A stretch of 48,006 nucleotides of DNA, taken from the IMG/VR virus record IMGVR_UViG_2541047905_000004, positions 1 to 48,006 of that record. One strand, 5' to 3'. Shown piece after piece: positions 14,255 to 34,066 of this stretch; the stretch's first letter is position 1; each line of letters begins with the position of its first letter. The stretch comes from a virus. Lineage: Duplodnaviria; Heunggongvirae; Uroviricota; Caudoviricetes. The notes below the pieces were generated by a model. The model did not search any database, had not been told where the DNA came from, and saw nothing but the letters and a program-made list of their open reading frames with translations. Both the position numbers and the translations under genes were made by a program.

Positions 14255-14257
14255 TCC

Positions 14258-15670: not shown

Positions 15671-15673
15671 ATT

Positions 15674-15889: not shown

Positions 15890-16385
15890 ACGCTGCCTTG
15901 TCGGGGCCGTGCTGGCTATTGCTGCCACGCTGCCGGGTTTTCAGCAGCTTCACACCTCCGTGGAAGGGCTGAAACTGATTGCCGATTACGAAGGTTGTCG
16001 TCTGCAGCCGTATCAGTGCAGCGCGGGTGTCTGGACCGACGGCATTGGTAATACATCGGGCGTCATCCCGGGCAAAACCATTACGGAACGACAGGCAGCG
16101 GAAGGGCTGATCTCCAACGTGCTGCGTGTGGAGCGGGCGCTGGAAAGGTGTGTGAAGCAACAGCCGCCGCAGAAGGTGTATGACGCTGCGGTGTCGTTTG
16201 CCTTCAACGTGGGAACGGGAAATGCCTGCAGTTCCACACTGGTGAAATTACTCAATCAGCGGCGCTGGGCGGATGCGTGCCGACAGTTGCCGCGCTGGGT
16301 TTATGTAAAAGGTGTTTTTAATCAGGGGCTGGATAACCGCCGTGCGCGGGAGATGGCCTGGTGCCTTAAAGGAGCTGGACTATGA
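15870..16385 (+). CDS. SAR-type endolysin (T4-lysozyme-like muramidase)
   Basis: ATG at 15870 after GGGAGGA; weakly hydrophobic Gly/Ala-rich N-terminus (CLVGAVLAIAATLPG) followed by an E...D...T catalytic pattern (EGLKLIADYEG...DGIGNT). Confidence 0.8.
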   Translation: MNPSIVKRCLVGAVLAIAATLPGFQQLHTSVEGLKLIADYEGCRLQPYQCSAGVWTDGIGNTSGVIPGKTITERQAAEGLISNVLRVERALERCVKQQPPQKVYDAAVSFAFNVGTGNACSSTLVKLLNQRRWADACRQLPRWVYVKGVFNQGLDNRRAREMAWCLKGAGL

Positions 16386-16810
16386 CGCGTGCTCTGGCAG
16401 TAGTGGTGGCGCTGGCACTCGTTGCGCTGGGCTGGCAGTCGAGGCGGCTTAACAGCGCCAGCCACACCATCGAAACGCAGCGCGCGGCGCTGAAAAGTAA
16501 AGCGCAGGAACTAACGAAGAAAAATAGCCAGCTGATCGGTCTGTCCATTCTGGCTGAAACCAACAACCGGGAGCAGGCGCGGCTCTATGCCGACGCAGAA
16601 CAGACCAGCGCACTGCTGAGACAACGACAACACCGGATTGAGGAACTGAAACGTGAGAACGAGGATTTACGCCGCTGGGCTGATACTCCTTTGCCTGCTG
16701 ACATTATCCGGCTGCGGGAACGCCCCACGCTCACCGGAGGTGCAGCTTACCGTCAGTGGTTGTCCGCGAGTGACGCCGTGTCGGCTGGAGCAGGCAGCGC
16801 CGCGCACTAA
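16382..16810 (+). CDS. i-spanin (Rz/LysB-like)
   Basis: N-terminal TM (ALAVVVALALVALGW) and a coiled-coil-like Q/R/E-rich body; start overlaps the endolysin stop. Confidence 0.6.
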   Translation: MTRALAVVVALALVALGWQSRRLNSASHTIETQRAALKSKAQELTKKNSQLIGLSILAETNNREQARLYADAEQTSALLRQRQHRIEELKRENEDLRRWADTPLPADIIRLRERPTLTGGAAYRQWLSASDAVSAGAGSAAH

Positions 16811-16943
16811 TGGTGATCTGAACGCGTTGCTGGATGAAACGGAGGCTGCCTGGGCGGTCTGTGCAGACAAAGTGGACATGATTATTGCGTGTCAGGAGCG
16901 AAACAGTGAACAAACCACAATCCCTGCGCCACGCCCTCAATAA
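16653..16943 (+). CDS. o-spanin lipoprotein (Rz1/LysC-like), overlapping the i-spanin in another frame
   Basis: GTG start at 16653; lipobox LTLSGC in MRTRIYAAGLILLCLLTLSGC; Pro-rich; overlaps the i-spanin 3' half and the start of R. Confidence 0.5.
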   Translation: MRTRIYAAGLILLCLLTLSGCGNAPRSPEVQLTVSGCPRVTPCRLEQAAPRTNGDLNALLDETEAAWAVCADKVDMIIACQERNSEQTTIPAPRPQ

Positions 16944-17337
16944 AGCGGTGCCTTATGTCCGCAATAACCCGGACAAACTGCATCTGTTTGTGGATAACGG
17001 TTCGCTGGTTGCCACAGGGGCCAGCTCCATGTCGTGGGAGTACCGTTACACCCTGAACGCGGTGATTGAGGATTTCAGCGGCGACCAGAATCTGCTGATG
17101 GCCCCGGTTTTGCTGTGGCTGAGGGATAACCAGCCCGATGCCATCAATAACCCGGCGTTACGGGAAAAACTATTCACCTTTGAGGTGGATATTCTGCGCA
17201 ACGATGTCTGTGATATCAGCCTGAACCTGCAACTGACGGAGCGTGTGCTGGTCCGCACTGACGGCAGTGTGTCGAGCGTTGAAGCTGTAGCAGAACCCGA
17301 TGAACCTGAAGAAATGTGGACGGTGAAACGTGGCTGA
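16906..17337 (+). CDS. R: Tail completion protein R (gpR-like)
   Basis: GTG at 16906, 8 nt after AGGAG (track ORF starts at TTG 16885); similar to P2 R as recalled (LRRAL...IFVDNGS...RYTLN). Confidence 0.75.
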   Translation: MNKPQSLRHALNKAVPYVRNNPDKLHLFVDNGSLVATGASSMSWEYRYTLNAVIEDFSGDQNLLMAPVLLWLRDNQPDAINNPALREKLFTFEVDILRNDVCDISLNLQLTERVLVRTDGSVSSVEAVAEPDEPEEMWTVKRG

Positions 17338-17773
17338 ACTGCAGAAGGTGGACGACTGGTTGAGTGCCTTGCTGGCGAATCTGGAACCAGCCACGAGAAG
17401 TCGCATGATGCGCCAGCTGGCGCAGGAACTGCGCAGGACACAACAGAAGAACATCAGGATGCAGCGCAATCCAGATGGCAGTAGTTATGAACCGCGACGG
17501 GTAACAGCACGCAGTAAAAAGGGGCGTATCAAACGTCAGATGTTTGCAAAGCTGCGCACCACAAAATACCTGAAAACTGCCGCCAGCGCCGATTCTGCCA
17601 GCGTGCAGTTTGAAGGTAAGGTACAGCGCATTGCCCGTGTTCACCATTACGGCCTGCGTGATCGCGTCAGCCGCAAAGGACCGGAGGTCCGTTATGCAGA
17701 GCGGCAGTTACTTGGCATAGATTCTAAAATAACCGCCGTTATTCGTAATAAGCTATTTGAGTTTATTAAATAA
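17330..17773 (+). CDS. S: Tail completion / virion morphogenesis protein S (gpS-like)
   Basis: GTG start at 17330 directly after the in-frame stop; 147 aa; follows R. Confidence 0.8.
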   Translation: MAELQKVDDWLSALLANLEPATRSRMMRQLAQELRRTQQKNIRMQRNPDGSSYEPRRVTARSKKGRIKRQMFAKLRTTKYLKTAASADSASVQFEGKVQRIARVHHYGLRDRVSRKGPEVRYAERQLLGIDSKITAVIRNKLFEFIK

Positions 17774-17779
17774 AAACTC

Positions 17780-19576
17780 TCAGGATTGTGATAAATGTAT
17801 TAAACATTGACAAAAATATTTAATGTCGTCACATATTTCATCTTTATTCATGTGTTCCAAAACTTCATCTCGAGTAATTGAGAAGTTATGTTTTAGTGAA
17901 TTTTCGCCACTAATGAAAATTTCTTTTCCATGTGCGTCTTTTAAGGCTGCAGCTATATCTGTAGATGTTATCGAATCAGGGATAGCTAACGCATGTCTAT
18001 CTCTAAAGAAATTACGTATATCTTCTTCAGATGTGTCTGCAGCTCTTGCGATGGCTGATATATCTAGAAAGTAATTTTCAATGTGTCTGCGACGCCATTT
18101 CATGGCTAAAAAATCACTATCGCCGTGATTTGTTGATTTATCTTTAAGATCAGCTCCTACAGAATGGTCGCTATCATCATCACGATCGCGCATGCTAATG
18201 GCTTTTAAGTCAGGAATTTCATTTTTTAATTGTTTGTATAATTGAAATCTTTCTGAAGATTTTCCAGTCCAAAGCCATGTGACAATATTTTTGGGCCATG
18301 TTAGTTCTAACTTTTCAAATATTTTTTTTAGGAATCTTTCATCGCTAACACCTTCAACAATCAACAATTTTTTGTCTTCGGTAAGCTTATGGATTTTAGG
18401 GCTAAAGATCGTGCCAATTCCACTTAATAGACCTATTTTTTCATTATCAGATCCAAGGTATTTCCCTCTGGACTTTGATAGTGCCAAAATTTTCTGTGGT
18501 TCATAAGCCCTGATTAATTCAGTAGAGTGTGTTGCCAATAGGACCTGCTTTCCTTTTTTAATTGTTATCTCTTCTAAACGTTCAGTTAGATTTTTCTGTA
18601 ATTGTGTATGCAGGTGAGCATCTGGTTCATCTAGTAGAATGACATTAAATTCTTCTGATAAGGCCAATGTATATACACTTAACCATTGAAGAAAACCGCT
18701 TCCTTCAACCATAATATCTCTAGCATTGAAGTTTTTGTGTTTTTTAAATTGATAACCATTGACAACGCCAGCGACACATTCAATTTTTAAGTAACTATGA
18801 TATTGTTCATTAAATGGAGTTACTTCAAGTTTTAAAGAAAAAAGGTCAAAGAGTGTTTTTTGTAATATTTCCCAAGGATCTGTTTCCCTTAATAAATTAA
18901 GGTCTTTATTGGCGATTTTGTTTCGCCCTTCTTTTAACTTCCGGCGTTTGTTTTGATTCTCTAAGTGAATATCGTAAATAGAATTTCTGATTACTCCACC
19001 AGAAAGCCCCTGACCGATTAGTCGATTCCTCATTGCTGGGCTAAGACGGCTTTCTCGGTCTGTAATACCTGCAAATGGAGGGAGATAAGCGATCTGGGGT
19101 ATATTCTCATTATTTGGAGAACCATCGTCATTCTGTATTTCTTGTAAAGCAAGGTTGCTAGATGTATTTTTTATAAATAATCTATCATTTGCTAATGATA
19201 AACCGATCTCTAAAAACTTCTCATTTTTTAAAATATCATCCCAAAAAAGCTTTATCTTTAGAGTATAACCATCATCTTCTGTTTGTTTTTGAGATTTTAA
19301 ATTGGTCCATAAGTGGCTTAAAGACGGTATAAACATCGGCGTGAAATCGACAATGCCTAGTCCGACACCTTGATTTGTCGCATTTTCAGTCCAACTCACT
19401 CTTCCTTTTTCAATTTCTAAAAGAGTCTTACAGAATTGCCACGTTGCCATTGCTTGCAGTAACGATGACTTACCGGAATTGTTCCCGCCGACTAGGAGGC
19501 TTAATTCGTCATTTAATTGTATTGTTGAGTTTTTATATTTTTTGAATTTCTTAAGCTCTACTTTTTTTATGTACAT
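17780..19576 (-). CDS. ABC-type ATPase fused to a Toprim-like C-terminal domain (OLD-family / PARIS AriA-AriB-like); candidate anti-phage defence or exclusion gene
   Basis: 598 aa, ATG at 19576 (rc). Walker A GGNNSGKSS, signature-like GLSGG, Walker B ILLDEPDAHLH, H-loop LLATHS; C-terminal LLIVEGVSDERF and SMRDRDDDSD acidic motifs. AT-rich, opposite strand, inserted between S and V. Confidence 0.6.
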   Translation of the reverse strand: MYIKKVELKKFKKYKNSTIQLNDELSLLVGGNNSGKSSLLQAMATWQFCKTLLEIEKGRVSWTENATNQGVGLGIVDFTPMFIPSLSHLWTNLKSQKQTEDDGYTLKIKLFWDDILKNEKFLEIGLSLANDRLFIKNTSSNLALQEIQNDDGSPNNENIPQIAYLPPFAGITDRESRLSPAMRNRLIGQGLSGGVIRNSIYDIHLENQNKRRKLKEGRNKIANKDLNLLRETDPWEILQKTLFDLFSLKLEVTPFNEQYHSYLKIECVAGVVNGYQFKKHKNFNARDIMVEGSGFLQWLSVYTLALSEEFNVILLDEPDAHLHTQLQKNLTERLEEITIKKGKQVLLATHSTELIRAYEPQKILALSKSRGKYLGSDNEKIGLLSGIGTIFSPKIHKLTEDKKLLIVEGVSDERFLKKIFEKLELTWPKNIVTWLWTGKSSERFQLYKQLKNEIPDLKAISMRDRDDDSDHSVGADLKDKSTNHGDSDFLAMKWRRRHIENYFLDISAIARAADTSEEDIRNFFRDRHALAIPDSITSTDIAAALKDAHGKEIFISGENSLKHNFSITRDEVLEHMNKDEICDDIKYFCQCLIHLSQS

Positions 19577-19666
19577 AGTGGAGATACCTAACCTTTATTA
19601 AACCAAATCGCCTCATCATGAGAACTGGGACAGTTTACTATCTACTGAATTGTTTCTAAAGAGAAT

Positions 19667-19684
19667 TGTATCAAGTTCCAGACA
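19667..19684. promoter_or_regulatory. Late promoter activator site (TGT-N12-ACA) upstream of V
   Basis: TGT at 19667-19669, ATCAAGTTCCAG, ACA at 19682-19684; about 50 bp upstream of the V ATG; -10-like TATGTG follows. Confidence 0.4.
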
Positions 19685-19732
19685 ATTACAATCCATTTGG
19701 GACACGCCCAATATGTGGCAATTTTTTAAGCT

Positions 19733-20311
19733 ATGAATGCACAATTAACCGAAATCATGCGCCTTATCACTAACCTGATCCGCACTGGTGTAGTCACCGA
19801 AGTGGACCGGGAAAACTGGCTTTGCCGGGTGAAAACGGGCGACCTTGAAACCAACTGGATCAGCTGGCTGACGCTGCGTGCCGGGAATGCCCGCACATGG
19901 TGGCGACCATCGGAAGGTGAGCAGGTGGTGGTGCTGAGTCTGGCAGGCAATCTGGAAACCGCGTTTGCGCTGCCCGCCATCTATTCGAATCAGTTCGCTC
20001 CACCGTCGACGTCGGCAGACGCCTGCGTGACAGAACATCCTGACGGCGGCTGGTTTGAATACGAACCCACCACCGGGCGCTGGTATGTCAGGGGCATCAA
20101 ATCCATGGTCATTGAGACTGCCGACAACATCACCCTGAAAACCAGTGAGTTTGTGCTGGAGGCTGACCGCACGCGTATTAACAGCGAAGTAGTGATCAAT
20201 GGTGGCGTTACCCAGGGCGGCGGAGTGATGAGTTCTAACGGGATCGTCGTTGATGCGCATCAGCATACTGGCGTCCTGAAAGGCGGCGACACAACCGGAG
20301 GCCCGGTATGA
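19733..20311 (+). CDS. V: Baseplate assembly / spike protein V (gpV-like)
   Basis: 192 aa; aligns by eye with P2 gpV (…RTWW.PS.GEQV…AF.LP.IYS…SNG…H.H.G…GGTTG). Confidence 0.85.
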   Translation: MNAQLTEIMRLITNLIRTGVVTEVDRENWLCRVKTGDLETNWISWLTLRAGNARTWWRPSEGEQVVVLSLAGNLETAFALPAIYSNQFAPPSTSADACVTEHPDGGWFEYEPTTGRWYVRGIKSMVIETADNITLKTSEFVLEADRTRINSEVVINGGVTQGGGVMSSNGIVVDAHQHTGVLKGGDTTGGPV

Positions 20312-20667
20312 CGCTTTATAGCGGGATGAACAATACCAGCGGTAAAGCCATTACTGATATTGACCATCTGCGCCAGTCGGTGCGGGACATTCTGCTGACA
20401 CCGCAGGGTAGCCGTATTGCCCGTCGTGAATATGGCTCCCTGCTGTTGGCGCTAATAGACCAGCCACAAAATCCGGCGTTACGCCTGCAGGTCATGTCGG
20501 CAGTGTATGTGGCGCTGAGTCGCTGGGAGCCACGGCTGACGCTGGATTCCATCACCATTAACAGCAATTTTGACGGTTCAATGGTGGTGGAGCTGACCGG
20601 GCGGCGTAATAACGGTGTGCCTGTTTCCCTTTCCGTATCAACAGGAGCAGAGAATGGCAGTGATTGA
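20308..20667 (+). CDS. W: Baseplate protein W (gpW / gp25-like)
   Basis: ATG at 20308 after GGAGG, overlapping the V stop; 119 aa. Confidence 0.8.
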   Translation: MTLYSGMNNTSGKAITDIDHLRQSVRDILLTPQGSRIARREYGSLLLALIDQPQNPALRLQVMSAVYVALSRWEPRLTLDSITINSNFDGSMVVELTGRRNNGVPVSLSVSTGAENGSD

Positions 20668-21562
20668 CCTTTCGCAGTTGCCTGCGCCGCAGATTGTGGA
20701 TGTGCCGGACTTTGAGACGCTGCTTGCCGAACGCAAGGCCGAATTTGTTGCGCTTCATCCGAAAGATGAGCAGGAAGCAGTGATCCGCACGCTTGAACTG
20801 GAATCTGAACCCGTCACCAAATTGCTGCAGGAGAACGCTTACCGTGAGTTGCTTCTGCGCCAGCGCATTAACGAAGCCGCGCAGGCTGTGATGGTGGCTT
20901 ACGCTATGGGCAGCGATCTTGACCAGCTCGCTGCCAACTACAACGTGAAACGCCTGACGGTGACGCCTGCTGATAATGACGCTGTGCCGCCCGTTGCAGC
21001 TGTGATGGAAAGCGATGAAGCGTTACGCCTGCGTGTGCCTGCAGCCTTTGAAGGGCTTTCAGTTGCGGGGCCAACTGCAGCTTATGAATTTCATGCCCGA
21101 AGCGCCGACGGTCGGGTGGCGGATGCCAGTGCAACCAGCCCGGCACCTGCAGAGGTGGTGCTGACTGTCCTTAGCCGCGAAGGCGATGGAACTGCAGAAA
21201 AAGATCTGCTGGACGTGGTGGAAAAAGCTCTGAACAGTGAGAACGTCCGCCCGGTGGCTGACCGTCTGACGGTTCGCAGCGCAGAAATCATCCCGTATCG
21301 CGTGGAAGCCACCATTTTTCTCTATCCGGGACCGGAAGCAGAGCCGGTAATGGCAGCGGCAAAAGCCAGCCTGCAGAAGTACATCGCCAGTCAGACGCGT
21401 CTTGGTCGGGATATTCGCCGTAGCGCCATCTTTGCCGCACTGCATGTTGAGGGTGTGCAGCGTGTGGAGCTGGCTTCTCCTCTGGCGGATGTGGTCCTGA
21501 ACAAAACACAGGCGGCATCATGTACGCAGTGGAGCGTAACCAACGGAGGAACGGATGAATAG
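20654..21562 (+). CDS. J: Baseplate assembly protein J (gpJ-like)
   Basis: ATG at 20654 after GGAGCAGAGA (track ORF starts earlier); about 302 aa. Confidence 0.85.
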   Translation: MAVIDLSQLPAPQIVDVPDFETLLAERKAEFVALHPKDEQEAVIRTLELESEPVTKLLQENAYRELLLRQRINEAAQAVMVAYAMGSDLDQLAANYNVKRLTVTPADNDAVPPVAAVMESDEALRLRVPAAFEGLSVAGPTAAYEFHARSADGRVADASATSPAPAEVVLTVLSREGDGTAEKDLLDVVEKALNSENVRPVADRLTVRSAEIIPYRVEATIFLYPGPEAEPVMAAAKASLQKYIASQTRLGRDIRRSAIFAALHVEGVQRVELASPLADVVLNKTQAASCTQWSVTNGGTDE

Positions 21563-22160
21563 TCTGCTGCCACCGGGTTCAACACCACTGGAGCGCCGAC
21601 TGGCGCAAACCTGCAGCGGGATTTCTGATCTGCAGGTGCCGCTTCGTGACTTGTGGAATCCGGCAACCTGCCCGGTCAGTTTCCTGCCTTATCTCGCCTG
21701 GGCGTTCTCTGTGGATCGCTGGGACGAGGGCTGGACAGAAAGCGTCAAGCGCCAGGTGGTGAAGGATGCTTTTTATATTCATCAGCATAAAGGGACCACC
21801 AGTGCCGTGCGTCGGGTGGTGGAGCCGTTCGGCTTTCTGATCCGCATTATTGAGTGGTGGCAGACCGGAGAGACACCGGGCACGTTTCGTCTGGATATCG
21901 GCGTGCAGGACCAGGGCATCACTGAAGATACCTATCTGGAACTTGAGCGACTGATAAGCGATGCCAAACCATGTAGCCGTCACATGATCGGCATGTCCAT
22001 CAACCTGCAGACCAGCGGCCCGCATTGGGTGGGAGCCGCCAGCTATCTTGGCGAAGAAATCACGATCTATCCGTATATCAACGAAACAATTATTTCCGGC
22101 GGCACCGCGCATGAAGGCGGGGCGGTCCATGTTATTGACACAATGAGAGTGAATCCATGA
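21555..22160 (+). CDS. I: Baseplate / tail formation protein I (gpI-like)
   Basis: ATG at 21555 after GGAGG; 201 aa; between J and H. Confidence 0.8.
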
Positions 22161-23557
22161 GCACAAAATTTTATACCCTGCTGACGGATATTGGCGCGGC
22201 GAAACTTGCCAGCGCCGCCGCGCTCGGTGTGCCTTTAAAAATTACCCATATGGCGGTCGGCGATGGCGGCGGAACATTGCCAACGCCGGACGCAAAGCAG
22301 ACAGCATTAGTAAATGAGAAACGCCGGGCTGCGCTGAATATGCTCTATATCGACCCGCAGAACAGCAGCCAGATTATTGCTGAACAGGTGATCCCTGAAA
22401 ACGAGGGCGGTTGGTGGATACGTGAAGTGGGCCTGTTTGATGAGTCCGGGGCATTGATTGCCGTGGGCAACTGCCCGGAAAGCTATAAGCCGCAACTGGC
22501 TGAAGGCAGCGGGCGTACCCAGACCGTGCGCATGGTGCTGATTACCAGCAGCACGGACAATATCACCCTGAAAATCGACCCTGCCGTAGTGCTGGCAACC
22601 CGCAAGTATGTGGATGACAAGGTACTGGAGCTGAAGGTGTACGTAGATGACCTGATGGCAAAACATCTTGCTGCACAGGACCCACATTCACAGTACGCGC
22701 CAAAAGCCAGCCCGACATTTACCGGAACCCCCAAAGCGCCAACGCCAGCGGCGGGGAATAATACCACGCGGGTTGCGACCACTGCGTTTGTACAGGCGGC
22801 ACTGACGGCCCTTATTAATGGTGCGCCAGCCACGCTGGACACGCTGAAAGAAATAGCCGCAGCCATTAACAATGATCCGAATTTCAGTACCACCATTAAC
22901 AATGCGCTGGCACTAAAAGCACCGTTGTCGAGTCCGGCACTCACCGGAACGCCAACAGCCCCCACGGCGGCGCAGTCGGTCAACAATACACAGATTGCCA
23001 CTACGGCTTTTGTGAAATCGGCGATTGCAGGAATGGTGGGTTCTGCACCTGCTGCACTGGATACACTGAACGAACTGGCGGCGGCACTGGGGAATGATCC
23101 GAACTTTGCCACGACAATGCTTAATGCGCTGGCAGGTAAACAACCGCTGGACAATACGCTTACCAATTTGAGTGGAAAGGATGTGGCTGGTCTTCTCGCA
23201 TACCTTGGTTTGGGAAAAGCGGCTAAAAGGAATGTAGGGACAGGGGCGAATCAGATACCTGATATGGGTAGCTTCACGCTTTCTGTTTCAGGTACTGGAT
23301 ATCAAAAATTACCATCAGGTTTTATTCTTCAGTGGGGCTCAATCGGCGCACCAGGCATTGCACAGGATGTAGTAACCCATTTCCCGATTGCATTTCCAAA
23401 CAGATGTCTGCGTGTTTTGGTCTCACAAGACTACACACCAGATAGCGGGGCTGTTGGTTATATTGCCTGTGCAGGTTTTAGTCCCGACCCGGTTAAATTT
23501 ATATCCAGAGCCAGTACTCCTGGCCTCGGCGCTTCATTTTTAGCGTTAGGCTGTTAA
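22157..23557 (+). CDS. H: Tail fibre protein H, variant 1 (constant N-terminal part plus Mu/P1 S-type C-terminal module)
   Basis: 466 aa; N-terminus [18 protein letters not shown]...MAVGDGGG typical of P2 gpH; C-terminal 114 aa (from 23216) unique to this copy, with [13 protein letters not shown]. Confidence 0.85.
23193..23218. other. Candidate serine-invertase crossover site (hix/gix/cix/pix-like), left
   Basis: TTCTCGCATACC-TT-GGTTTGGGAAAA: two 12-bp imperfect inverted half-sites (9/12) around a central dinucleotide; inverted copy of the right site with 25/26 identity; lies exactly at the constant/variable junction of H. Confidence 0.55.
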
Positions 23558-23578
23558 TTTAGCTATATGGAGTGAAAA

Positions 23579-24019
23579 ATGAATTACATATATTCCGCGA
23601 CTACAAACTCTTTCTATCCGCTGGAGATGAAAGAGGATTACACTCAAGCTGACTCATGGCCAGATGATGCTGTTGAAGTTGATGAGCAAGTGTATATTGA
23701 GTTTTCCGGATTACCGCCGAAAGGAAAAATCCGTATCGCTGGAGAAAATGGTTTTCCTGCATGGTCTGAAATTCCACCACCAACACATGAGGAACAGATT
23801 GCTGCAGCCGAACTGGAAAAGCAGCAACTGATTAATCAGGCCAACGATTATATGAACAGTAAACAATGGCCTGGTAAAGCGGCTATTGGCCGGCTGAAAG
23901 GTGAGGAACTGGCGCAATATAATTTGTGGCTGGATTATCTGGACGCACTGGAACTGGTCGATACTTCCGGTGCGCCAGATATTGAATGGCCTACGCCTCC
24001 GGCAGTTCAGGCCAGATGA
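23579..24019 (+). CDS. Tail fibre assembly protein (Tfa / gpG-like), cognate to H variant 1
   Basis: ATG at 23579, 21 nt after the H stop, with GGAGTGA; C-terminal WLDYLDAL...WPTPP Tfa-type motif. Confidence 0.75.
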   Translation: MNYIYSATTNSFYPLEMKEDYTQADSWPDDAVEVDEQVYIEFSGLPPKGKIRIAGENGFPAWSEIPPPTHEEQIAAAELEKQQLINQANDYMNSKQWPGKAAIGRLKGEELAQYNLWLDYLDALELVDTSGAPDIEWPTPPAVQAR

Positions 24020-24584
24020 CGTCCGGCGCTGTGCTGGTATCTGTTGCCGTCACCGCGTCAATGTAATCCAGCACAGCGTTAAGTCGGGTGTTTTCTGGCT
24101 GCGTCAGCTTCCGCCCAGCCTGTAATTTCAGTTGAATCAGACTGATGGAAGCCATTGCAGCATCAATCAGCGACTGGCGCTGTGCTTCTGCCGCTTCTAC
24201 TGCGGCGCTATGCTGTGCCTCGGTATCCGTCACCCATTTCTCACCATCCCATTTATCGTATGGCGTTAACGGTGAAAGCGTGACATAACCGTCTTTGATG
24301 GCACCGATATAATCCACTGTAACAGCTGCGCCATTTTCAGTTGAGTAAACGGTCTCATTGCGATGGTCTTCTTCATGGCTCCATCCCTTACCCGTAAATA
24401 CTGCCACTTTTCCCGGAATGTTTTCGCCCGGGTCAATACCAGTGGAACAGGCGGGTATACTTACGCCAGTATTAATATATTCATCAGACCAGCCGGTATA
24501 TTCATACGTTACTGCATTATAATAAAAACAACGCATATCGCCCGGCACTGTAGCCAGCCCATTTTCATCAAAAACAGGTTTCAT
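23991..24584 (-). CDS. Tail fibre assembly protein (Tfa / gpG-like), cognate to H variant 2
   Basis: ATG at 24584 (rc) overlapping the H-variant-2 stop (TAATG); C-terminal VLDYIDAV...WPELP Tfa motif; 3' end overlaps the other Tfa by 29 bp. Confidence 0.75.
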   Translation of the reverse strand: MKPVFDENGLATVPGDMRCFYYNAVTYEYTGWSDEYINTGVSIPACSTGIDPGENIPGKVAVFTGKGWSHEEDHRNETVYSTENGAAVTVDYIGAIKDGYVTLSPLTPYDKWDGEKWVTDTEAQHSAAVEAAEAQRQSLIDAAMASISLIQLKLQAGRKLTQPENTRLNAVLDYIDAVTATDTSTAPDVIWPELPEA

Positions 24585-26164
24585 TATTTAGCCCTCACCA
24601 GAAAGTTAAATGCAATATTTCGTGGACGGGTTTCTGTATCTACATTTCCACTAATTTCACCATAACGTTTAACACTACGAGAGCTAAGAGCTCGTAGTGA
24701 GGAAGGCACCTTAAGACCGGGTTCGTCCGTTTTAACTATTCCCCCGTCACCGTATGTGGCCAGTATTCCTGGGTTTACTCCCTCCCGTGCACTTCCTGCG
24801 GCAAGCCCGTCCCCCGTCCACAACTCCATATTGTGTGCATGATCCATAATTGTGTGTGATTGCCCTGAAAGTAGGGTACGTCCGACATCAATCCCGCGCC
24901 CATCATCCCAGATACGAATGAAATCACCCCGTGCGTCAGGTAATGCTAGCGCCGGAAACACTTTCGCCAGCACAGGGTAATCAGTGGCAGAGAATTTCGC
25001 GCCGTTGAACTTCAAAAACACCATACTGGACCAACTGTCGATTACAGTATTTGGCATTGCGGCGGACGGCCAGAAGAACGGAACGCCAATAGCTGGAGCA
25101 CCTTCTCCCAAACCAAGGTATGCGAGAAGACCAGCCACATCCTTTCCACTCAAATTGGTAAGCGTATTGTCCAGCGGTTGTTTACCTGCCAGCGCATTAA
25201 GCATTGTCGTGGCAAAGTTCGGATCATTCCCCAGTGCCGCCGCCAGTTCGTTCAGTGTATCCAGTGCAGCAGGTGCAGAACCCACCATTCCTGCAATCGC
25301 CGATTTCACAAAAGCCGTAGTGGCAATCTGTGTATTGTTGACCGACTGCGCCGCCGTGGGGGCTGTTGGCGTTCCGGTGAGTGCCGGACTCGACAACGGT
25401 GCTTTTAGTGCCAGCGCATTGTTAATGGTGGTACTGAAATTCGGATCATTGTTAATGGCTGCGGCTATTTCTTTCAGCGTGTCCAGCGTGGCTGGCGCAC
25501 CATTAATAAGGGCCGTCAGTGCCGCCTGTACAAACGCAGTGGTCGCAACCCGCGTGGTATTATTCCCCGCCGCTGGCGTTGGCGCTTTGGGGGTTCCGGT
25601 AAATGTCGGGCTGGCTTTTGGCGCGTACTGTGAATGTGGGTCCTGTGCAGCAAGATGTTTTGCCATCAGGTCATCTACGTACACCTTCAGCTCCAGTACC
25701 TTGTCATCCACATACTTGCGGGTTGCCAGCACTACGGCAGGGTCGATTTTCAGGGTGATATTGTCCGTGCTGCTGGTAATCAGCACCATGCGCACGGTCT
25801 GGGTACGCCCGCTGCCTTCAGCCAGTTGCGGCTTATAGCTTTCCGGGCAGTTGCCCACGGCAATCAATGCCCCGGACTCATCAAACAGGCCCACTTCACG
25901 TATCCACCAACCGCCCTCGTTTTCAGGGATCACCTGTTCAGCAATAATCTGGCTGCTGTTCTGCGGGTCGATATAGAGCATATTCAGCGCAGCCCGGCGT
26001 TTCTCATTTACTAATGCTGTCTGCTTTGCGTCCGGCGTTGGCAATGTTCCGCCGCCATCGCCGACCGCCATATGGGTAATTTTTAAAGGCACACCGAGCG
26101 CGGCGGCGCTGGCAAGTTTCGCCGCGCCAATATCCGTCAGCAGGGTATAAAATTTTGTGCTCAT
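24584..26164 (-). CDS. H: Tail fibre protein H, variant 2 (same constant N-terminus plus tail-collar-type C-terminal module)
   Basis: 526 aa; first ~347 aa identical to variant 1; unique C-terminus (coded 24584..25105) contains LPDARGDFIRIWDDGRGID...SGQSHTIMDHAH, typical of phage tail collar domains. Confidence 0.85.
   Translation of the reverse strand: MSTKFYTLLTDIGAAKLASAAALGVPLKITHMAVGDGGGTLPTPDAKQTALVNEKRRAALNMLYIDPQNSSQIIAEQVIPENEGGWWIREVGLFDESGALIAVGNCPESYKPQLAEGSGRTQTVRMVLITSSTDNITLKIDPAVVLATRKYVDDKVLELKVYVDDLMAKHLAAQDPHSQYAPKASPTFTGTPKAPTPAAGNNTTRVATTAFVQAALTALINGAPATLDTLKEIAAAINNDPNFSTTINNALALKAPLSSPALTGTPTAPTAAQSVNNTQIATTAFVKSAIAGMVGSAPAALDTLNELAAALGNDPNFATTMLNALAGKQPLDNTLTNLSGKDVAGLLAYLGLGEGAPAIGVPFFWPSAAMPNTVIDSWSSMVFLKFNGAKFSATDYPVLAKVFPALALPDARGDFIRIWDDGRGIDVGRTLLSGQSHTIMDHAHNMELWTGDGLAAGSAREGVNPGILATYGDGGIVKTDEPGLKVPSSLRALSSRSVKRYGEISGNVDTETRPRNIAFNFLVRAK
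25103..25128. other. Candidate serine-invertase crossover site, right
   Basis: TTCTCCCAAACC-AA-GGTATGCGAGAA; resembles hixL as I recall it (TTCTTGAAAACCAAGGTTTTTGATAA); inverted relative to the left site. Confidence 0.55.
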
Positions 26165-26766
26165 GGATTCACTCTCATTGTGTCAATAACATGGACCGCC
26201 CCGCCTTCATGCGCGGTGCCGCCGGAAATAATTGTTTCGTTGATATACGGATAGATCGTGATTTCTTCGCCAAGATAGCTGGCGGCTCCCACCCAATGCG
26301 GGCCGCTGGTCTGCAGGTTGATGGACATGCCGATCATGTGACGGCTACATGGTTTGGCATCGCTTATCAGTCGCTCAAGTTCCAGATAGGTATCTTCAGT
26401 GATGCCCTGGTCCTGCACGCCGATATCCAGACGAAACGTGCCCGGTGTCTCTCCGGTCTGCCACCACTCAATAATGCGGATCAGAAAGCCGAACGGCTCC
26501 ACCACCCGACGCACGGCACTGGTGGTCCCTTTATGCTGATGAATATAAAAAGCATCCTTCACCACCTGGCGCTTGACGCTTTCTGTCCAGCCCTCGTCCC
26601 AGCGATCCACAGAGAACGCCCAGGCGAGATAAGGCAGGAAACTGACCGGGCAGGTTGCCGGATTCCACAAGTCACGAAGCGGCACCTGCAGATCAGAAAT
26701 CCCGCTGCAGGTTTGCGCCAGTCGGCGCTCCAGTGGTGTTGAACCCGGTGGCAGCAGACTATTCAT
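26161..26766 (-). CDS. I: Baseplate / tail formation protein I (mirror copy)
   Basis: Mirror of 21555..22160; identical translation. Confidence 0.8.
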   Translation of the reverse strand: MNSLLPPGSTPLERRLAQTCSGISDLQVPLRDLWNPATCPVSFLPYLAWAFSVDRWDEGWTESVKRQVVKDAFYIHQHKGTTSAVRRVVEPFGFLIRIIEWWQTGETPGTFRLDIGVQDQGITEDTYLELERLISDAKPCSRHMIGMSINLQTSGPHWVGAASYLGEEITIYPYINETIISGGTAHEGGAVHVIDTMRVNP

Positions 26767-27667
26767 CCGTTCCTCCGTTGGTTACGCTCCACTGCGTACA
26801 TGATGCCGCCTGTGTTTTGTTCAGGACCACATCCGCCAGAGGAGAAGCCAGCTCCACACGCTGCACACCCTCAACATGCAGTGCGGCAAAGATGGCGCTA
26901 CGGCGAATATCCCGACCAAGACGCGTCTGACTGGCGATGTACTTCTGCAGGCTGGCTTTTGCCGCTGCCATTACCGGCTCTGCTTCCGGTCCCGGATAGA
27001 GAAAAATGGTGGCTTCCACGCGATACGGGATGATTTCTGCGCTGCGAACCGTCAGACGGTCAGCCACCGGGCGGACGTTCTCACTGTTCAGAGCTTTTTC
27101 CACCACGTCCAGCAGATCTTTTTCTGCAGTTCCATCGCCTTCGCGGCTAAGGACAGTCAGCACCACCTCTGCAGGTGCCGGGCTGGTTGCACTGGCATCC
27201 GCCACCCGACCGTCGGCGCTTCGGGCATGAAATTCATAAGCTGCAGTTGGCCCCGCAACTGAAAGCCCTTCAAAGGCTGCAGGCACACGCAGGCGTAACG
27301 CTTCATCGCTTTCCATCACAGCTGCAACGGGCGGCACAGCGTCATTATCAGCAGGCGTCACCGTCAGGCGTTTCACGTTGTAGTTGGCAGCGAGCTGGTC
27401 AAGATCGCTGCCCATAGCGTAAGCCACCATCACAGCCTGCGCGGCTTCGTTAATGCGCTGGCGCAGAAGCAACTCACGGTAAGCGTTCTCCTGCAGCAAT
27501 TTGGTGACGGGTTCAGATTCCAGTTCAAGCGTGCGGATCACTGCTTCCTGCTCATCTTTCGGATGAAGCGCAACAAATTCGGCCTTGCGTTCGGCAAGCA
27601 GCGTCTCAAAGTCCGGCACATCCACAATCTGCGGCGCAGGCAACTGCGAAAGGTCAATCACTGCCAT
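26759..27667 (-). CDS. J: Baseplate assembly protein J (mirror copy)
   Basis: Mirror of 20654..21562; identical translation. Confidence 0.85.
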   Translation of the reverse strand: MAVIDLSQLPAPQIVDVPDFETLLAERKAEFVALHPKDEQEAVIRTLELESEPVTKLLQENAYRELLLRQRINEAAQAVMVAYAMGSDLDQLAANYNVKRLTVTPADNDAVPPVAAVMESDEALRLRVPAAFEGLSVAGPTAAYEFHARSADGRVADASATSPAPAEVVLTVLSREGDGTAEKDLLDVVEKALNSENVRPVADRLTVRSAEIIPYRVEATIFLYPGPEAEPVMAAAKASLQKYIASQTRLGRDIRRSAIFAALHVEGVQRVELASPLADVVLNKTQAASCTQWSVTNGGTDE

Positions 27668-28013
27668 TCTCTGCTCCTGTTGATACGGAAAGGGAAACAG
27701 GCACACCGTTATTACGCCGCCCGGTCAGCTCCACCACCATTGAACCGTCAAAATTGCTGTTAATGGTGATGGAATCCAGCGTCAGCCGTGGCTCCCAGCG
27801 ACTCAGCGCCACATACACTGCCGACATGACCTGCAGGCGTAACGCCGGATTTTGTGGCTGGTCTATTAGCGCCAACAGCAGGGAGCCATATTCACGACGG
27901 GCAATACGGCTACCCTGCGGTGTCAGCAGAATGTCCCGCACCGACTGGCGCAGATGGTCAATATCAGTAATGGCTTTACCGCTGGTATTGTTCATCCCGC
28001 TATAAAGCGTCAT
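27654..28013 (-). CDS. W: Baseplate protein W (mirror copy)
   Basis: Mirror of 20308..20667; identical translation. Confidence 0.8.
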   Translation of the reverse strand: MTLYSGMNNTSGKAITDIDHLRQSVRDILLTPQGSRIARREYGSLLLALIDQPQNPALRLQVMSAVYVALSRWEPRLTLDSITINSNFDGSMVVELTGRRNNGVPVSLSVSTGAENGSD

Positions 28014-28588
28014 ACCGGGCCTCCGGTTGTGTCGCCGCCTTTCAGGACGCCAGTATGCTGATGCGCATCAACGACGATCCCGTTAGAACTCATCACTCCG
28101 CCGCCCTGGGTAACGCCACCATTGATCACTACTTCGCTGTTAATACGCGTGCGGTCAGCCTCCAGCACAAACTCACTGGTTTTCAGGGTGATGTTGTCGG
28201 CAGTCTCAATGACCATGGATTTGATGCCCCTGACATACCAGCGCCCGGTGGTGGGTTCGTATTCAAACCAGCCGCCGTCAGGATGTTCTGTCACGCAGGC
28301 GTCTGCCGACGTCGACGGTGGAGCGAACTGATTCGAATAGATGGCGGGCAGCGCAAACGCGGTTTCCAGATTGCCTGCCAGACTCAGCACCACCACCTGC
28401 TCACCTTCCGATGGTCGCCACCATGTGCGGGCATTCCCGGCACGCAGCGTCAGCCAGCTGATCCAGTTGGTTTCAAGGTCGCCCGTTTTCACCCGGCAAA
28501 GCCAGTTTTCCCGGTCCACTTCGGTGACTACACCAGTGCGGATCAGGTTAGTGATAAGGCGCATGATTTCGGTTAATTGTGCATTCAT
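28010..28588 (-). CDS. V: Baseplate spike protein V (mirror copy)
   Basis: Mirror of 19733..20311; identical translation. Confidence 0.85.
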   Translation of the reverse strand: MNAQLTEIMRLITNLIRTGVVTEVDRENWLCRVKTGDLETNWISWLTLRAGNARTWWRPSEGEQVVVLSLAGNLETAFALPAIYSNQFAPPSTSADACVTEHPDGGWFEYEPTTGRWYVRGIKSMVIETADNITLKTSEFVLEADRTRINSEVVINGGVTQGGGVMSSNGIVVDAHQHTGVLKGGDTTGGPV

Positions 28589-28636
28589 AGCTTAAAAAAT
28601 TGCCACATATTGGGCGTGTCCCAAATGGATTGTAAT

Positions 28637-28654
28637 TGTCTGGAACTTGATACA
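28637..28654. promoter_or_regulatory. Late promoter TGT-N12-ACA site upstream of V (mirror copy)
   Basis: Mirror of 19667..19684. Confidence 0.4.
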
Positions 28655-28744
28655 ATTCTCTTTAGAAACAATTCAGTAGATAGTAAACTGTCCCAGTTCT
28701 CATGATGAGGCGATTTGGTTTAATAAAGGTTAGGTATCTCCACT

Positions 28745-30541
28745 ATGTACATAAAAAAAGTAGAGCTTAAGAAATTCAAAAAATATAAAAACTCAACAAT
28801 ACAATTAAATGACGAATTAAGCCTCCTAGTCGGCGGGAACAATTCCGGTAAGTCATCGTTACTGCAAGCAATGGCAACGTGGCAATTCTGTAAGACTCTT
28901 TTAGAAATTGAAAAAGGAAGAGTGAGTTGGACTGAAAATGCGACAAATCAAGGTGTCGGACTAGGCATTGTCGATTTCACGCCGATGTTTATACCGTCTT
29001 TAAGCCACTTATGGACCAATTTAAAATCTCAAAAACAAACAGAAGATGATGGTTATACTCTAAAGATAAAGCTTTTTTGGGATGATATTTTAAAAAATGA
29101 GAAGTTTTTAGAGATCGGTTTATCATTAGCAAATGATAGATTATTTATAAAAAATACATCTAGCAACCTTGCTTTACAAGAAATACAGAATGACGATGGT
29201 TCTCCAAATAATGAGAATATACCCCAGATCGCTTATCTCCCTCCATTTGCAGGTATTACAGACCGAGAAAGCCGTCTTAGCCCAGCAATGAGGAATCGAC
29301 TAATCGGTCAGGGGCTTTCTGGTGGAGTAATCAGAAATTCTATTTACGATATTCACTTAGAGAATCAAAACAAACGCCGGAAGTTAAAAGAAGGGCGAAA
29401 CAAAATCGCCAATAAAGACCTTAATTTATTAAGGGAAACAGATCCTTGGGAAATATTACAAAAAACACTCTTTGACCTTTTTTCTTTAAAACTTGAAGTA
29501 ACTCCATTTAATGAACAATATCATAGTTACTTAAAAATTGAATGTGTCGCTGGCGTTGTCAATGGTTATCAATTTAAAAAACACAAAAACTTCAATGCTA
29601 GAGATATTATGGTTGAAGGAAGCGGTTTTCTTCAATGGTTAAGTGTATATACATTGGCCTTATCAGAAGAATTTAATGTCATTCTACTAGATGAACCAGA
29701 TGCTCACCTGCATACACAATTACAGAAAAATCTAACTGAACGTTTAGAAGAGATAACAATTAAAAAAGGAAAGCAGGTCCTATTGGCAACACACTCTACT
29801 GAATTAATCAGGGCTTATGAACCACAGAAAATTTTGGCACTATCAAAGTCCAGAGGGAAATACCTTGGATCTGATAATGAAAAAATAGGTCTATTAAGTG
29901 GAATTGGCACGATCTTTAGCCCTAAAATCCATAAGCTTACCGAAGACAAAAAATTGTTGATTGTTGAAGGTGTTAGCGATGAAAGATTCCTAAAAAAAAT
30001 ATTTGAAAAGTTAGAACTAACATGGCCCAAAAATATTGTCACATGGCTTTGGACTGGAAAATCTTCAGAAAGATTTCAATTATACAAACAATTAAAAAAT
30101 GAAATTCCTGACTTAAAAGCCATTAGCATGCGCGATCGTGATGATGATAGCGACCATTCTGTAGGAGCTGATCTTAAAGATAAATCAACAAATCACGGCG
30201 ATAGTGATTTTTTAGCCATGAAATGGCGTCGCAGACACATTGAAAATTACTTTCTAGATATATCAGCCATCGCAAGAGCTGCAGACACATCTGAAGAAGA
30301 TATACGTAATTTCTTTAGAGATAGACATGCGTTAGCTATCCCTGATTCGATAACATCTACAGATATAGCTGCAGCCTTAAAAGACGCACATGGAAAAGAA
30401 ATTTTCATTAGTGGCGAAAATTCACTAAAACATAACTTCTCAATTACTCGAGATGAAGTTTTGGAACACATGAATAAAGATGAAATATGTGACGACATTA
30501 AATATTTTTGTCAATGTTTAATACATTTATCACAATCCTGA
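28745..30541 (+). CDS. OLD/PARIS-like ABC ATPase-Toprim fusion (mirror copy)
   Basis: Mirror of 17780..19576; identical 598-aa translation. Confidence 0.6.
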   Translation: MYIKKVELKKFKKYKNSTIQLNDELSLLVGGNNSGKSSLLQAMATWQFCKTLLEIEKGRVSWTENATNQGVGLGIVDFTPMFIPSLSHLWTNLKSQKQTEDDGYTLKIKLFWDDILKNEKFLEIGLSLANDRLFIKNTSSNLALQEIQNDDGSPNNENIPQIAYLPPFAGITDRESRLSPAMRNRLIGQGLSGGVIRNSIYDIHLENQNKRRKLKEGRNKIANKDLNLLRETDPWEILQKTLFDLFSLKLEVTPFNEQYHSYLKIECVAGVVNGYQFKKHKNFNARDIMVEGSGFLQWLSVYTLALSEEFNVILLDEPDAHLHTQLQKNLTERLEEITIKKGKQVLLATHSTELIRAYEPQKILALSKSRGKYLGSDNEKIGLLSGIGTIFSPKIHKLTEDKKLLIVEGVSDERFLKKIFEKLELTWPKNIVTWLWTGKSSERFQLYKQLKNEIPDLKAISMRDRDDDSDHSVGADLKDKSTNHGDSDFLAMKWRRRHIENYFLDISAIARAADTSEEDIRNFFRDRHALAIPDSITSTDIAAALKDAHGKEIFISGENSLKHNFSITRDEVLEHMNKDEICDDIKYFCQCLIHLSQS

Positions 30542-30547
30542 GAGTTT

Positions 30548-30991
30548 TTATTTAATAAACTCAAATAGCTTATTACGAATAACGGCGGTTATTTTAGAAT
30601 CTATGCCAAGTAACTGCCGCTCTGCATAACGGACCTCCGGTCCTTTGCGGCTGACGCGATCACGCAGGCCGTAATGGTGAACACGGGCAATGCGCTGTAC
30701 CTTACCTTCAAACTGCACGCTGGCAGAATCGGCGCTGGCGGCAGTTTTCAGGTATTTTGTGGTGCGCAGCTTTGCAAACATCTGACGTTTGATACGCCCC
30801 TTTTTACTGCGTGCTGTTACCCGTCGCGGTTCATAACTACTGCCATCTGGATTGCGCTGCATCCTGATGTTCTTCTGTTGTGTCCTGCGCAGTTCCTGCG
30901 CCAGCTGGCGCATCATGCGACTTCTCGTGGCTGGTTCCAGATTCGCCAGCAAGGCACTCAACCAGTCGTCCACCTTCTGCAGTTCAGCCAC
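30548..30991 (-). CDS. S: Tail completion protein S (mirror copy)
   Basis: Mirror of 17330..17773; identical translation. Confidence 0.8.
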   Translation of the reverse strand: MAELQKVDDWLSALLANLEPATRSRMMRQLAQELRRTQQKNIRMQRNPDGSSYEPRRVTARSKKGRIKRQMFAKLRTTKYLKTAASADSASVQFEGKVQRIARVHHYGLRDRVSRKGPEVRYAERQLLGIDSKITAVIRNKLFEFIK

Positions 30992-31415
30992 GTTTCACCG
31001 TCCACATTTCTTCAGGTTCATCGGGTTCTGCTACAGCTTCAACGCTCGACACACTGCCGTCAGTGCGGACCAGCACACGCTCCGTCAGTTGCAGGTTCAG
31101 GCTGATATCACAGACATCGTTGCGCAGAATATCCACCTCAAAGGTGAATAGTTTTTCCCGTAACGCCGGGTTATTGATGGCATCGGGCTGGTTATCCCTC
31201 AGCCACAGCAAAACCGGGGCCATCAGCAGATTCTGGTCGCCGCTGAAATCCTCAATCACCGCGTTCAGGGTGTAACGGTACTCCCACGACATGGAGCTGG
31301 CCCCTGTGGCAACCAGCGAACCGTTATCCACAAACAGATGCAGTTTGTCCGGGTTATTGCGGACATAAGGCACCGCTTTATTGAGGGCGTGGCGCAGGGA
31401 TTGTGGTTTGTTCAC
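30984..31415 (-). CDS. R: Tail completion protein R (mirror copy)
   Basis: Mirror of 16906..17337. Confidence 0.75.
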   Translation of the reverse strand: MNKPQSLRHALNKAVPYVRNNPDKLHLFVDNGSLVATGASSMSWEYRYTLNAVIEDFSGDQNLLMAPVLLWLRDNQPDAINNPALREKLFTFEVDILRNDVCDISLNLQLTERVLVRTDGSVSSVEAVAEPDEPEEMWTVKRG

Positions 31416-31668
31416 TGTTTCGCTCCTGACACGCAATAATCATGTCCACTTTGTCTGCACAGACCGCCCAGGCAGCCTCCGTTTCATCCAGCAACGCGTT
31501 CAGATCACCATTAGTGCGCGGCGCTGCCTGCTCCAGCCGACACGGCGTCACTCGCGGACAACCACTGACGGTAAGCTGCACCTCCGGTGAGCGTGGGGCG
31601 TTCCCGCAGCCGGATAATGTCAGCAGGCAAAGGAGTATCAGCCCAGCGGCGTAAATCCTCGTTCTCAC
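31378..31668 (-). CDS. o-spanin lipoprotein (mirror copy)
   Basis: Mirror of 16653..16943. Confidence 0.5.
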   Translation of the reverse strand: MRTRIYAAGLILLCLLTLSGCGNAPRSPEVQLTVSGCPRVTPCRLEQAAPRTNGDLNALLDETEAAWAVCADKVDMIIACQERNSEQTTIPAPRPQ

Positions 31669-31939
31669 GTTTCAGTTCCTCAATCCGGTGTTGTCGTTGT
31701 CTCAGCAGTGCGCTGGTCTGTTCTGCGTCGGCATAGAGCCGCGCCTGCTCCCGGTTGTTGGTTTCAGCCAGAATGGACAGACCGATCAGCTGGCTATTTT
31801 TCTTCGTTAGTTCCTGCGCTTTACTTTTCAGCGCCGCGCGCTGCGTTTCGATGGTGTGGCTGGCGCTGTTAAGCCGCCTCGACTGCCAGCCCAGCGCAAC
31901 GAGTGCCAGCGCCACCACTACTGCCAGAGCACGCGTCAT
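31511..31939 (-). CDS. i-spanin (mirror copy)
   Basis: Mirror of 16382..16810. Confidence 0.6.
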   Translation of the reverse strand: MTRALAVVVALALVALGWQSRRLNSASHTIETQRAALKSKAQELTKKNSQLIGLSILAETNNREQARLYADAEQTSALLRQRQHRIEELKRENEDLRRWADTPLPADIIRLRERPTLTGGAAYRQWLSASDAVSAGAGSAAH

Positions 31940-32451
31940 AGTCCAGCTCCTTTAAGGCACCAGGCCATCTCCCGCGCACGGCGGTTATCCAGCCCCTGAT
32001 TAAAAACACCTTTTACATAAACCCAGCGCGGCAACTGTCGGCACGCATCCGCCCAGCGCCGCTGATTGAGTAATTTCACCAGTGTGGAACTGCAGGCATT
32101 TCCCGTTCCCACGTTGAAGGCAAACGACACCGCAGCGTCATACACCTTCTGCGGCGGCTGTTGCTTCACACACCTTTCCAGCGCCCGCTCCACACGCAGC
32201 ACGTTGGAGATCAGCCCTTCCGCTGCCTGTCGTTCCGTAATGGTTTTGCCCGGGATGACGCCCGATGTATTACCAATGCCGTCGGTCCAGACACCCGCGC
32301 TGCACTGATACGGCTGCAGACGACAACCTTCGTAATCGGCAATCAGTTTCAGCCCTTCCACGGAGGTGTGAAGCTGCTGAAAACCCGGCAGCGTGGCAGC
32401 AATAGCCAGCACGGCCCCGACAAGGCAGCGTTTAACGATTGATGGATTCAT
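31936..32451 (-). CDS. SAR-type endolysin (mirror copy)
   Basis: Mirror of 15870..16385. Confidence 0.8.
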   Translation of the reverse strand: MNPSIVKRCLVGAVLAIAATLPGFQQLHTSVEGLKLIADYEGCRLQPYQCSAGVWTDGIGNTSGVIPGKTITERQAAEGLISNVLRVERALERCVKQQPPQKVYDAAVSFAFNVGTGNACSSTLVKLLNQRRWADACRQLPRWVYVKGVFNQGLDNRRAREMAWCLKGAGL

Positions 32452-32647: not shown

Positions 32648-32650
32648 AAT

Positions 32651-34063: not shown

Positions 34064-34066
34064 GGA

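Follow-up and report, generated by a model that had tools for sequence, protein, structure and literature searches.

The P segment of e14 in Escherichia coli K-12, which is inverted by Pin (pinE), consists of a constant part, a site, two opposed modules (variable end and chaperone, then chaperone' and variable end'), a second site and the invertase, and the locus described here has the same layout. Both have the TT/AA core, the left sites are identical at 22/26 positions, the true right site of our locus (see below) is identical to that of e14 at 26/26 positions, and the invertases are 86% identical. The two elements differ in that e14 is a lambdoid remnant, whereas the host element here is an intact-looking P2/186-like myovirus prophage, with a constant part that is a P2 gpH-type fibre and with variable modules unlike those of e14. 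In the P2-like phages Cartapus and Fels-2, the same cassette lies between gpI and the sheath gene FI, with an annotated invertase between the cassette and FI. Such P2-like cassettes (Cartapus, 500465-1 and Salmonella phage Fels-2) differ from ours only in the variable C-terminus/chaperone pair and in prophage cargo elsewhere, except that the Fels-2 core is TC/GA, as in Mu. The two Cartapus sites are equal to ours apart from one base, at the A/G position that corresponds to 23216 of our sequence, and the Cartapus invertase is 98.9% identical; invertases with 97-99% identity are present in Escherichia phages Cartapus and 500465-1 and in Klebsiella phage KP12. The G segment of Mu, inverted by Gin, belongs to the same mechanism class, as do P1 C/Cin and Salmonella hix/Hin, with S-U / U'-S' logic and 26-bp sites built of 12-bp half-sites. 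Gin is 74% identical to the invertase of our locus, however, Mu is of another phage family, its sites are 18/26 identical to ours with a TC/GA core, and its segment measures 3 kb as opposed to 1.9 kb. For P2-like prophages of EPEC E2348/69, inversion has been demonstrated by sequencing and PCR (PMC4272514).

A preliminary description of the present locus took special interest in finding such a switch within a late operon of P2/186 type that lacked an adjacent invertase. That interest falls away, as databases already contain the cassette together with its invertase (Cartapus, 500465-1, Fels-2) and inversion of such a cassette is published. The switch is of a known type, Pin/Gin-type tail-fibre switches of P2-like prophages of E. 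coli and Salmonella being annotated in reference phage genomes and shown to invert, and it is not new biologically. The window, by which we mean the whole 48,006-bp stretch of DNA analysed, is the entire draft scaffold KE701826.1 of assembly GCA_000460555.1. We interpret it, with a probability of roughly 0.9, as a host-range switch in a P2/186-like E. coli prophage, worked by a serine invertase of the Pin/Gin/Hin family and contained in a scaffold that was misassembled by folding back on itself. The features are collected in Table 1.

Table 1. Features of the invertible tail-fibre locus, in coordinates of the window.
Feature	Position	Strand	Remarks
Constant N-terminal part of the tail-fibre gene (P2 gpH homologue)	22157..23206	+	Codons 1-350, to the crossover core; Pfam Phage_tail_fib 2.7e-65; follows gpV-W-J-I as in P2
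Left crossover site	23193..23218	+	TTCTCGCATACC-TT-GGTTTGGGAAAA; core TT at 23205-23206
Invertible segment between the two cores	23207..25114	.	Centre-to-centre 1,910 bp; sole unique, non-palindromic part of the window
Variable fibre C-terminus 1	23207..23557	+	Completes the 466-aa form; Gp53-like_C 1.2e-13; ORF 22157-23557
Tail-fibre assembly chaperone 1	23579..24019	+	146 aa; Caudo_TAP 8.4e-38
Tail-fibre assembly chaperone 2	23991..24584	-	197 aa; Caudo_TAP 1.2e-27
Variable fibre C-terminus 2	24584..25114	-	Completes the 526-aa form after inversion; ORF 24584-26164
Right crossover site, as the scaffold writes it	25103..25128	+	TTCTCCCAAACC-AA-GGTATGCGAGAA; core AA at 25115-25116
Fold-back arm	25117..48006	-	Exact reverse complement of 315-23204, zero mismatches

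Each of the two sites is an imperfect dyad of 12-bp half-sites around a 2-bp core, and the two are mutually inverted. Their sequences and coordinates are as the preliminary description gave them, and its figure of 25/26 for their inverted identity was reproduced: once reverse-complemented, the right site departs from the left one at a single position, 23216 (A versus G). A search with the family consensus TTCTCNNAAACCNNGGTTTNNGAGAA, allowing up to 3 mismatches, returned exactly two matches in the 48,006 bases, which are these two sites, compared with none in 100 dinucleotide-preserving shuffles. The half-site columns agree with the sites of e14, Mu, Fels-2 and Cartapus, all taken straight from the genome records, which bears out the earlier remark that the sites resemble hix and gix. 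Religation after strand rotation requires an identical core dinucleotide in the inverted reading. The TT and AA cores found here are compatible in inverted orientation, and the same cores occur in e14, in Cartapus and in a closed-genome copy of the prophage (L006, described below). Judged by their sequence, the 26-bp sites are Pin-type crossover sites of the pix/hix/gix family.

The crossover sites are in frame with the tail-fibre gene, at codon 350. The 466-aa and 526-aa fibre ORFs have an identical 353-aa N-terminus in common, with the Phage_tail_fib domain present in both forms, and diverge within the inner half-site. Each C-terminus is accompanied by its own chaperone gene, and the two chaperone genes are convergent with an overlap of 29 bp. 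This is the layout of the Mu G, P1 C and e14 P segments, with the N-terminus outside the segment and convergent pairs of C-terminus and chaperone inside. Together the sites, ORFs and domains support the proposal of a G-segment-like invertible tail-fibre cassette between inverted hix/gix/pix-type sites, and the 353-aa common prefix puts the sites, as had been proposed, where the constant N-terminus gives way to either of two alternative C-termini. In L006, the counterpart of C-terminus 2 is a promoterless 189-aa fragment whose ORF start is located in the invertase-side flank.

Outside the segment, position x of the window pairs with position 48321-x with zero mismatches (315..23215 against 25106..48006, 22,901 bp), and the whole window is one palindrome that pivots on the 1.9-kb unique cassette. 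It had been seen correctly that the identity of the arms stops inside the sites, but the length of the arms had been understated. We infer that the arms are a fold-back misassembly, i.e. a path taken by the assembler, rather than natural inverted repeats or a real molecule, although a real duplication, if very recent, could in principle also leave a perfect palindrome. For draft bacterial genomes, it has been remarked in general terms that contigs running into their own reverse complement are likely to be errors of assembly (PMC9455707). In contrast to those reported palindromic contigs, the pivot here is not arbitrary but coincides with the invertible segment, whose two junctions represent the two genuine orientation states. 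A hairpin chimera arising in the library or in long reads was also considered and rejected, since pivots of that origin are arbitrary fragment ends and not a 1.9-kb segment with exact recombinant junctions at the cores.

The closed chromosome OZ038772.1, compared on its 21-kb locus L006, is 100.000% identical to the window over 12,960 bp (12157-25116). The match ends at 25116, the second core base of the right site, and CGTTTATGAAAA comes next. The left site is unchanged in this copy, and the genuine right site of the identical prophage is TTCTCCCAAACC-AA-CGTTTATGAAAA (L006 12947-12972). The right site as the scaffold writes it instead matches, base for base, the junction at the constant part in L003 (5827-5852), a genome in which the segment is flipped. 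The inner half and core of the scaffold's right site are genuine, whereas its outer half is the reverse-complemented left flank, which makes it the junction of the flipped state. Beginning 56 bp past the right site, L006 has a 188-aa serine invertase ORF with Resolvase (3.3e-53) and HTH_7 (1.4e-15) domains, which is intact and includes the conserved N-terminal catalytic motif. It is followed by the sheath, tube, tape measure, U, D and ogr genes.

A serine invertase, which the preliminary description had suggested looking for, was thus found in L006 but not in the window, where tblastn with a related invertase gave nothing better than E = 7. The claim of a late-operon switch without an adjacent invertase does not survive this comparison, as the invertase seems to be missing because the scaffold folds back and the fold-back arm occupies its place. 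From the sequence of the identical prophage, we predict that the true right flank is a different one from the fold-back arm and carries the invertase gene, the sheath and tube genes and those that come after them. If the scaffold is misassembled, another scaffold would be expected to start at or near ...CCAAACCAACGTTTATGAAAA and to carry the invertase, sheath and tube genes. The identical prophage elsewhere also suggests that the GCA_000460555.1 genome itself encodes the invertase, and the enzyme is probably active in this strain. Its activity would presumably depend on Fis and an enhancer. The first 260 bp of the L006 invertase gene align well with pinE and gin, this stretch being coding sequence, and a scan of the 5′ regions of the L006 invertase gene, pinE and gin with a simple, degenerate Fis motif revealed no two sites that were clearly conserved and spaced as expected.

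Among complete E. coli genomes, the segment occurs in either orientation relative to the constant part, with the breakpoints at the sites. A 160-bp probe for the left-type junction was fully covered in 281 of the 5,426 genomes, and one for the right-type junction in 76 of the 5,426. Alignments to the window break at 25116 and at 23202-23205. The scaffold itself holds both junction types; because it joins two orientation states, mixed orientations are implied in the sequenced culture. Moreover, the hybrid junction at 25103-25128 is absent from the other orientation state and must therefore stem from reads of flipped molecules. This implies that the scaffold records inversion of the segment in the culture that was sequenced.

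We hypothesize that the late operon V-W-J-I-H would be transcribed into the constant 350-codon fibre N-terminus, which ends in a 26-bp site and is followed by the 1.9-kb segment, with its two convergent modules of variable C-terminus and own chaperone, and by the second, inverted 26-bp site. Past the second site, the real prophage would carry the 188-aa invertase gene at a distance of 56 bp, and then the tail sheath gene. The invertase would cleave the two sites at their TT/AA cores and rotate the segment. The constant part would thereby be fused either to the 116-aa C-terminus, yielding a 466-aa fibre with the 146-aa chaperone, or to the 176-aa C-terminus, yielding a 526-aa fibre with the 197-aa chaperone. 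The outcome of this choice would be particles of two receptor specificities, and a consequence for host range is likely. The scaffold itself would be a path through the assembly graph leading from the left flank through site, segment and site into the reverse-complemented left flank, and such a path would require reads from both orientation states.

The 46-kb palindrome could instead be real, if the invertase had joined one copy's left site to the right site of a second copy, on a sister chromosome or a replicating phage circle. The left flank would then be stably present as two perfect inverted copies, head to head on either side of the segment, both in this strain and in that of a second assembly. 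An intermolecular exchange of this sort yields the order flank-site-segment-site-flank' and precisely the hybrid right site observed, the arms are perfect, and the structure recurs in two assemblies, the second being GCA_000704145.1, where JNQN01000024.1 ends in the same fold-back. The short arm of that contig, however, is only 1,375 bp long: the mirrored arm halts mid-gene at the contig end after 1.4 kb, which is typical of a graph path that retraces itself. Both ends of KE701826.1 stop inside the same IS4 copy, with distinct outer flanks absent, the palindrome was found in 0 of 5,426 complete E. coli genomes, and in the closed genome the identical prophage is organised normally. In addition, enzymes of this family are known to act almost exclusively within a single supercoiled molecule, where they invert the DNA between two inverted sites. 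We consider a real palindrome very improbable; if true, it would be a chromosomal rearrangement thought to be beyond this family.

It is just as hard to credit that the cassette is an orphan lacking an invertase of its own and is inverted in trans by one from elsewhere, such as the Pin of e14. The window does lack an invertase, its site is nearly identical to the e14 pix site, on which Pin could probably act, and members of the invertase family cross-complement. Against this, the fold-back replaces the very region where the invertase belongs, the identical prophage has its own invertase beside the site, and an invertase adjoins the cassette at every related locus inspected (L001, L003, L004, Cartapus and Fels-2). 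The switch might also be a fossil with relic sites, in which the orientation differences are old and the assembler was misled merely by a short inverted repeat. Disrupted fibre genes, annotated as pseudogenes, at some related loci would be in keeping with this, as would the fact that e14 is a defective prophage. However, in one orientation state the sites share only ~11-13 exact bases, too few to fool an assembler, and the hybrid junction requires reads from flipped molecules. With the invertase ORF and its catalytic motif intact, and with either junction present at 100% identity on contigs of different draft assemblies (L008, L014), a fossil is highly unlikely.

A misassembled switch, our preferred reading, means that the public scaffold KE701826.1 is a 48-kb palindromic misassembly in which ~23 kb of prophage genes are duplicated and both fibre forms are shown complete, and from which the invertase and tail genes are omitted. 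A fold-back that pivots on a site-bounded segment would be the fingerprint of a locus actively inverting in the sequenced culture, and should not be taken for a long inverted repeat or an orphan switch.

The gene order of the prophage is ...R-S-V-W-J-I-H-(chaperone), followed by sheath FI and tube FII (Pfam families, L005 and L006), and is P2/186-like (Peduoviridae). The FI/FII part of this late region is visible in L006 only and is absent from the window. By comparison with L011, the left arm carries cI, cII, fil, dam and the replication gene A, a 186-type early region.

The 48,006-bp window, traced through the 466-aa tail fibre, is the whole of scaffold KE701826.1 from draft assembly GCA_000460555.1. 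Its two arms of 22,901 bp (315-23215 against 25106-48006) pair base for base, x with 48321-x, at zero mismatches, and the 1.9-kb unique centre is the pivot of a palindrome spanning the whole window. These are no ordinary inverted repeats, and everything from 25117 on reads as the window's left flank in reverse complement. Contigs of palindromic form are known as one kind of assembly error (PMC9455707), and KE701826.1 is most likely a fold-back misassembly. Since the scaffold is a perfect palindrome, the left-arm genes are all present twice and both fibre forms seem complete. Both scaffold ends fall within an IS4 element, and an IS element is a typical stopping place for an assembly path. At the IS4 end of the window, related prophages have an integrase in the matching position, and matches to other genomes start at window position 563.

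Features of the tail-fibre cassette and its surroundings in the window
Feature	Position	Strand	Detail
Left crossover site	23193-23218		TTCTCGCATACC-TT-GGTTTGGGAAAA, read from the window
Right crossover site, as in the scaffold	25103-25128		TTCTCCCAAACC-AA-GGTATGCGAGAA, read from the window
Tail-fibre ORF, 466-aa form	22157-23557	+	
Tail-fibre ORF, 526-aa form	24584-26164	-	
Caudo_TAP chaperone genes, 146 aa and 197 aa	between the two sites		convergent
AAA_15/AAA_21 ATPase, 598 aa	17780-19576, mirrored 28745-30541	-, mirrored +	between gpS and gpV
IS4 element, N-terminus of IS4 transposase	1-480, mirrored 47842-48006	-	Pfam Nterm_IS4 6.8e-34

The preliminary description had placed two 26-bp sites at the edges of the central segment as inverted copies of each other, and both points were confirmed: the left site matches the reverse complement of the right at 25/26 positions, with 23216 the sole mismatch, and the TT and AA cores are compatible. 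When all 48,006 bases were scanned with the family consensus TTCTCNNAAACCNNGGTTTNNGAGAA, allowing up to three mismatches, only these two sites matched, while 100 shuffles yielded no match at the same threshold. The sites are in frame with the tail-fibre gene and, as had been proposed, lie where a constant N-terminus meets alternative C-termini. The 466-aa and 526-aa ORFs share an identical 353-residue N-terminus and part inside the inner half-site. The N-terminus is constant, and each of the two alternative C-termini comes with a chaperone of its own.

Both orientation states of the segment exist. With 160-bp probes across each junction, the left junction was fully covered in 281 of 5,426 complete E. 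coli genomes and the right junction, which represents the flipped state, in 76 of the same 5,426. None of these genomes covered the 4-kb palindromic core to at least 80%, and the alignments from that search stop at 25116-25119 or 23202-23205, that is, at the sites. That the palindrome is a real inverted duplication made by intermolecular recombination is, in our judgement, very improbable. In several complete genomes the flipped-state fibre gene is annotated as two pseudogene pieces (L003 5383-6888, L002 1365-2870, L004 5116-6424), one of these records labelling a piece 'integrase'. About 650 bp with no match in the window separate the pieces, perhaps because the middle of the constant region is divergent or mosaic, perhaps through an annotation problem.

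The right site in the scaffold is a hybrid, in which the genuine inner half-site and core run into the left-flank half-site in reverse complement. The same 26-mer joins constant part and segment in genomes with a flipped segment (L003 5827-5852). For one of the orientation states, exact identity between the two natural sites is limited to roughly a dozen bases, and therefore an assembler cannot slide between them through repeat confusion; the hybrid junction must derive from reads of opposite-orientation molecules. In a mixed culture, a path of left flank, segment and reverse complement of left flank would be valid in the assembly graph, and the scaffold follows such a path. We strongly infer that the sequenced culture held mixed orientations. 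A second draft assembly, independent of the first, lends further weight to this, as it folds back in the same way: over its last 7,920 bp, JNQN01000024.1 (GCA_000704145.1) matches window 26503-18584 at 100% identity, and the mirrored arm reaches the contig end after just 1,375 bp. In further drafts (L008 and L014), short contigs that match the window at 100% identity carry either one junction or the other.

The natural right flank is found in L006, a locus of the closed chromosome OZ038772.1 that encodes the identical 466-aa fibre and holds the same prophage. It is 100.000% identical to window 12157-25116 (12,960 bp, 0 mismatches), and identity stops at the second base of the right-site AA core. 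Past the core L006 reads CGTTTATGAAAA, and therefore its right site is TTCTCCCAAACC-AA-CGTTTATGAAAA. This equals the right site of the e14 P segment in the K-12 record at 26/26 positions, bearing out the suggested likeness to Hin/Gin/Cin/Pin sites. An ORF of 188 aa begins 56 bases further on, with Resolvase (3.3e-53) and HTH_7 (1.4e-15) domains and 86% identity to PinE and 74% to Mu Gin; it is followed by tail sheath, tube, tape measure, U, D and ogr. A recombinase gene also lies between cassette and sheath gene in all three further complete E. coli genomes inspected (L001, L003 and L004). The earlier statement that no invertase adjoins the switch holds for the window, where tblastn found none, but not for the identical prophage in L006, which has the PinE-like gene beside the cassette. 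Judged from these sequences, the missing invertase is a scaffold artefact.

The switch is already known, since in reference Peduoviridae genomes this cassette lies between gpI/H and FI together with an annotated invertase, and inversion phase variation has been demonstrated in EPEC P2-like prophages by whole-genome sequencing and PCR (PMC4272514). Among characterised systems, the e14 P segment with Pin stands nearest to it, with near-identical sites and an invertase 86% identical. Escherichia phage Cartapus differs in the sites by a single base and has an invertase 98.9% identical; the invertases of Escherichia phage 500465-1 and Fels-2 are 97.9% and 85.7% identical.

The PinE-like invertase is intact in L006. 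Members of the Hin/Gin/Cin/Pin family cleave at the 2-bp cores in a synapse built with Fis on an enhancer within the invertase gene. By analogy, this invertase would cut the cores in such a synapse, then rotate and religate the strands. When the 5' regions of the L006 invertase gene, pinE and gin were scanned with a degenerate Fis motif, no convincing pair of conserved sites emerged, which leaves the enhancer a presumed element here. Inversion would place the other C-terminus and chaperone under expression from the late promoter, and the particle may then recognise another receptor.

The 598-aa ATPase lies in an island of 34% GC and probably represents cargo for defence against phages, carried in a P2 hotspot; PADLOC matches it best to AriAB (fused PARIS, 8.5e-26) and to GajA-like models. 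The related prophage L003 has a SIR2 protein in its place. A second island of about 35% GC (7100-9400) separates replication gene A from the portal gene; its ORFs of 141, 96 and 228 aa had no Pfam or PADLOC match. This is probably another cargo hotspot, because the related prophage L011 carries a retron St85 effector in the matching region.
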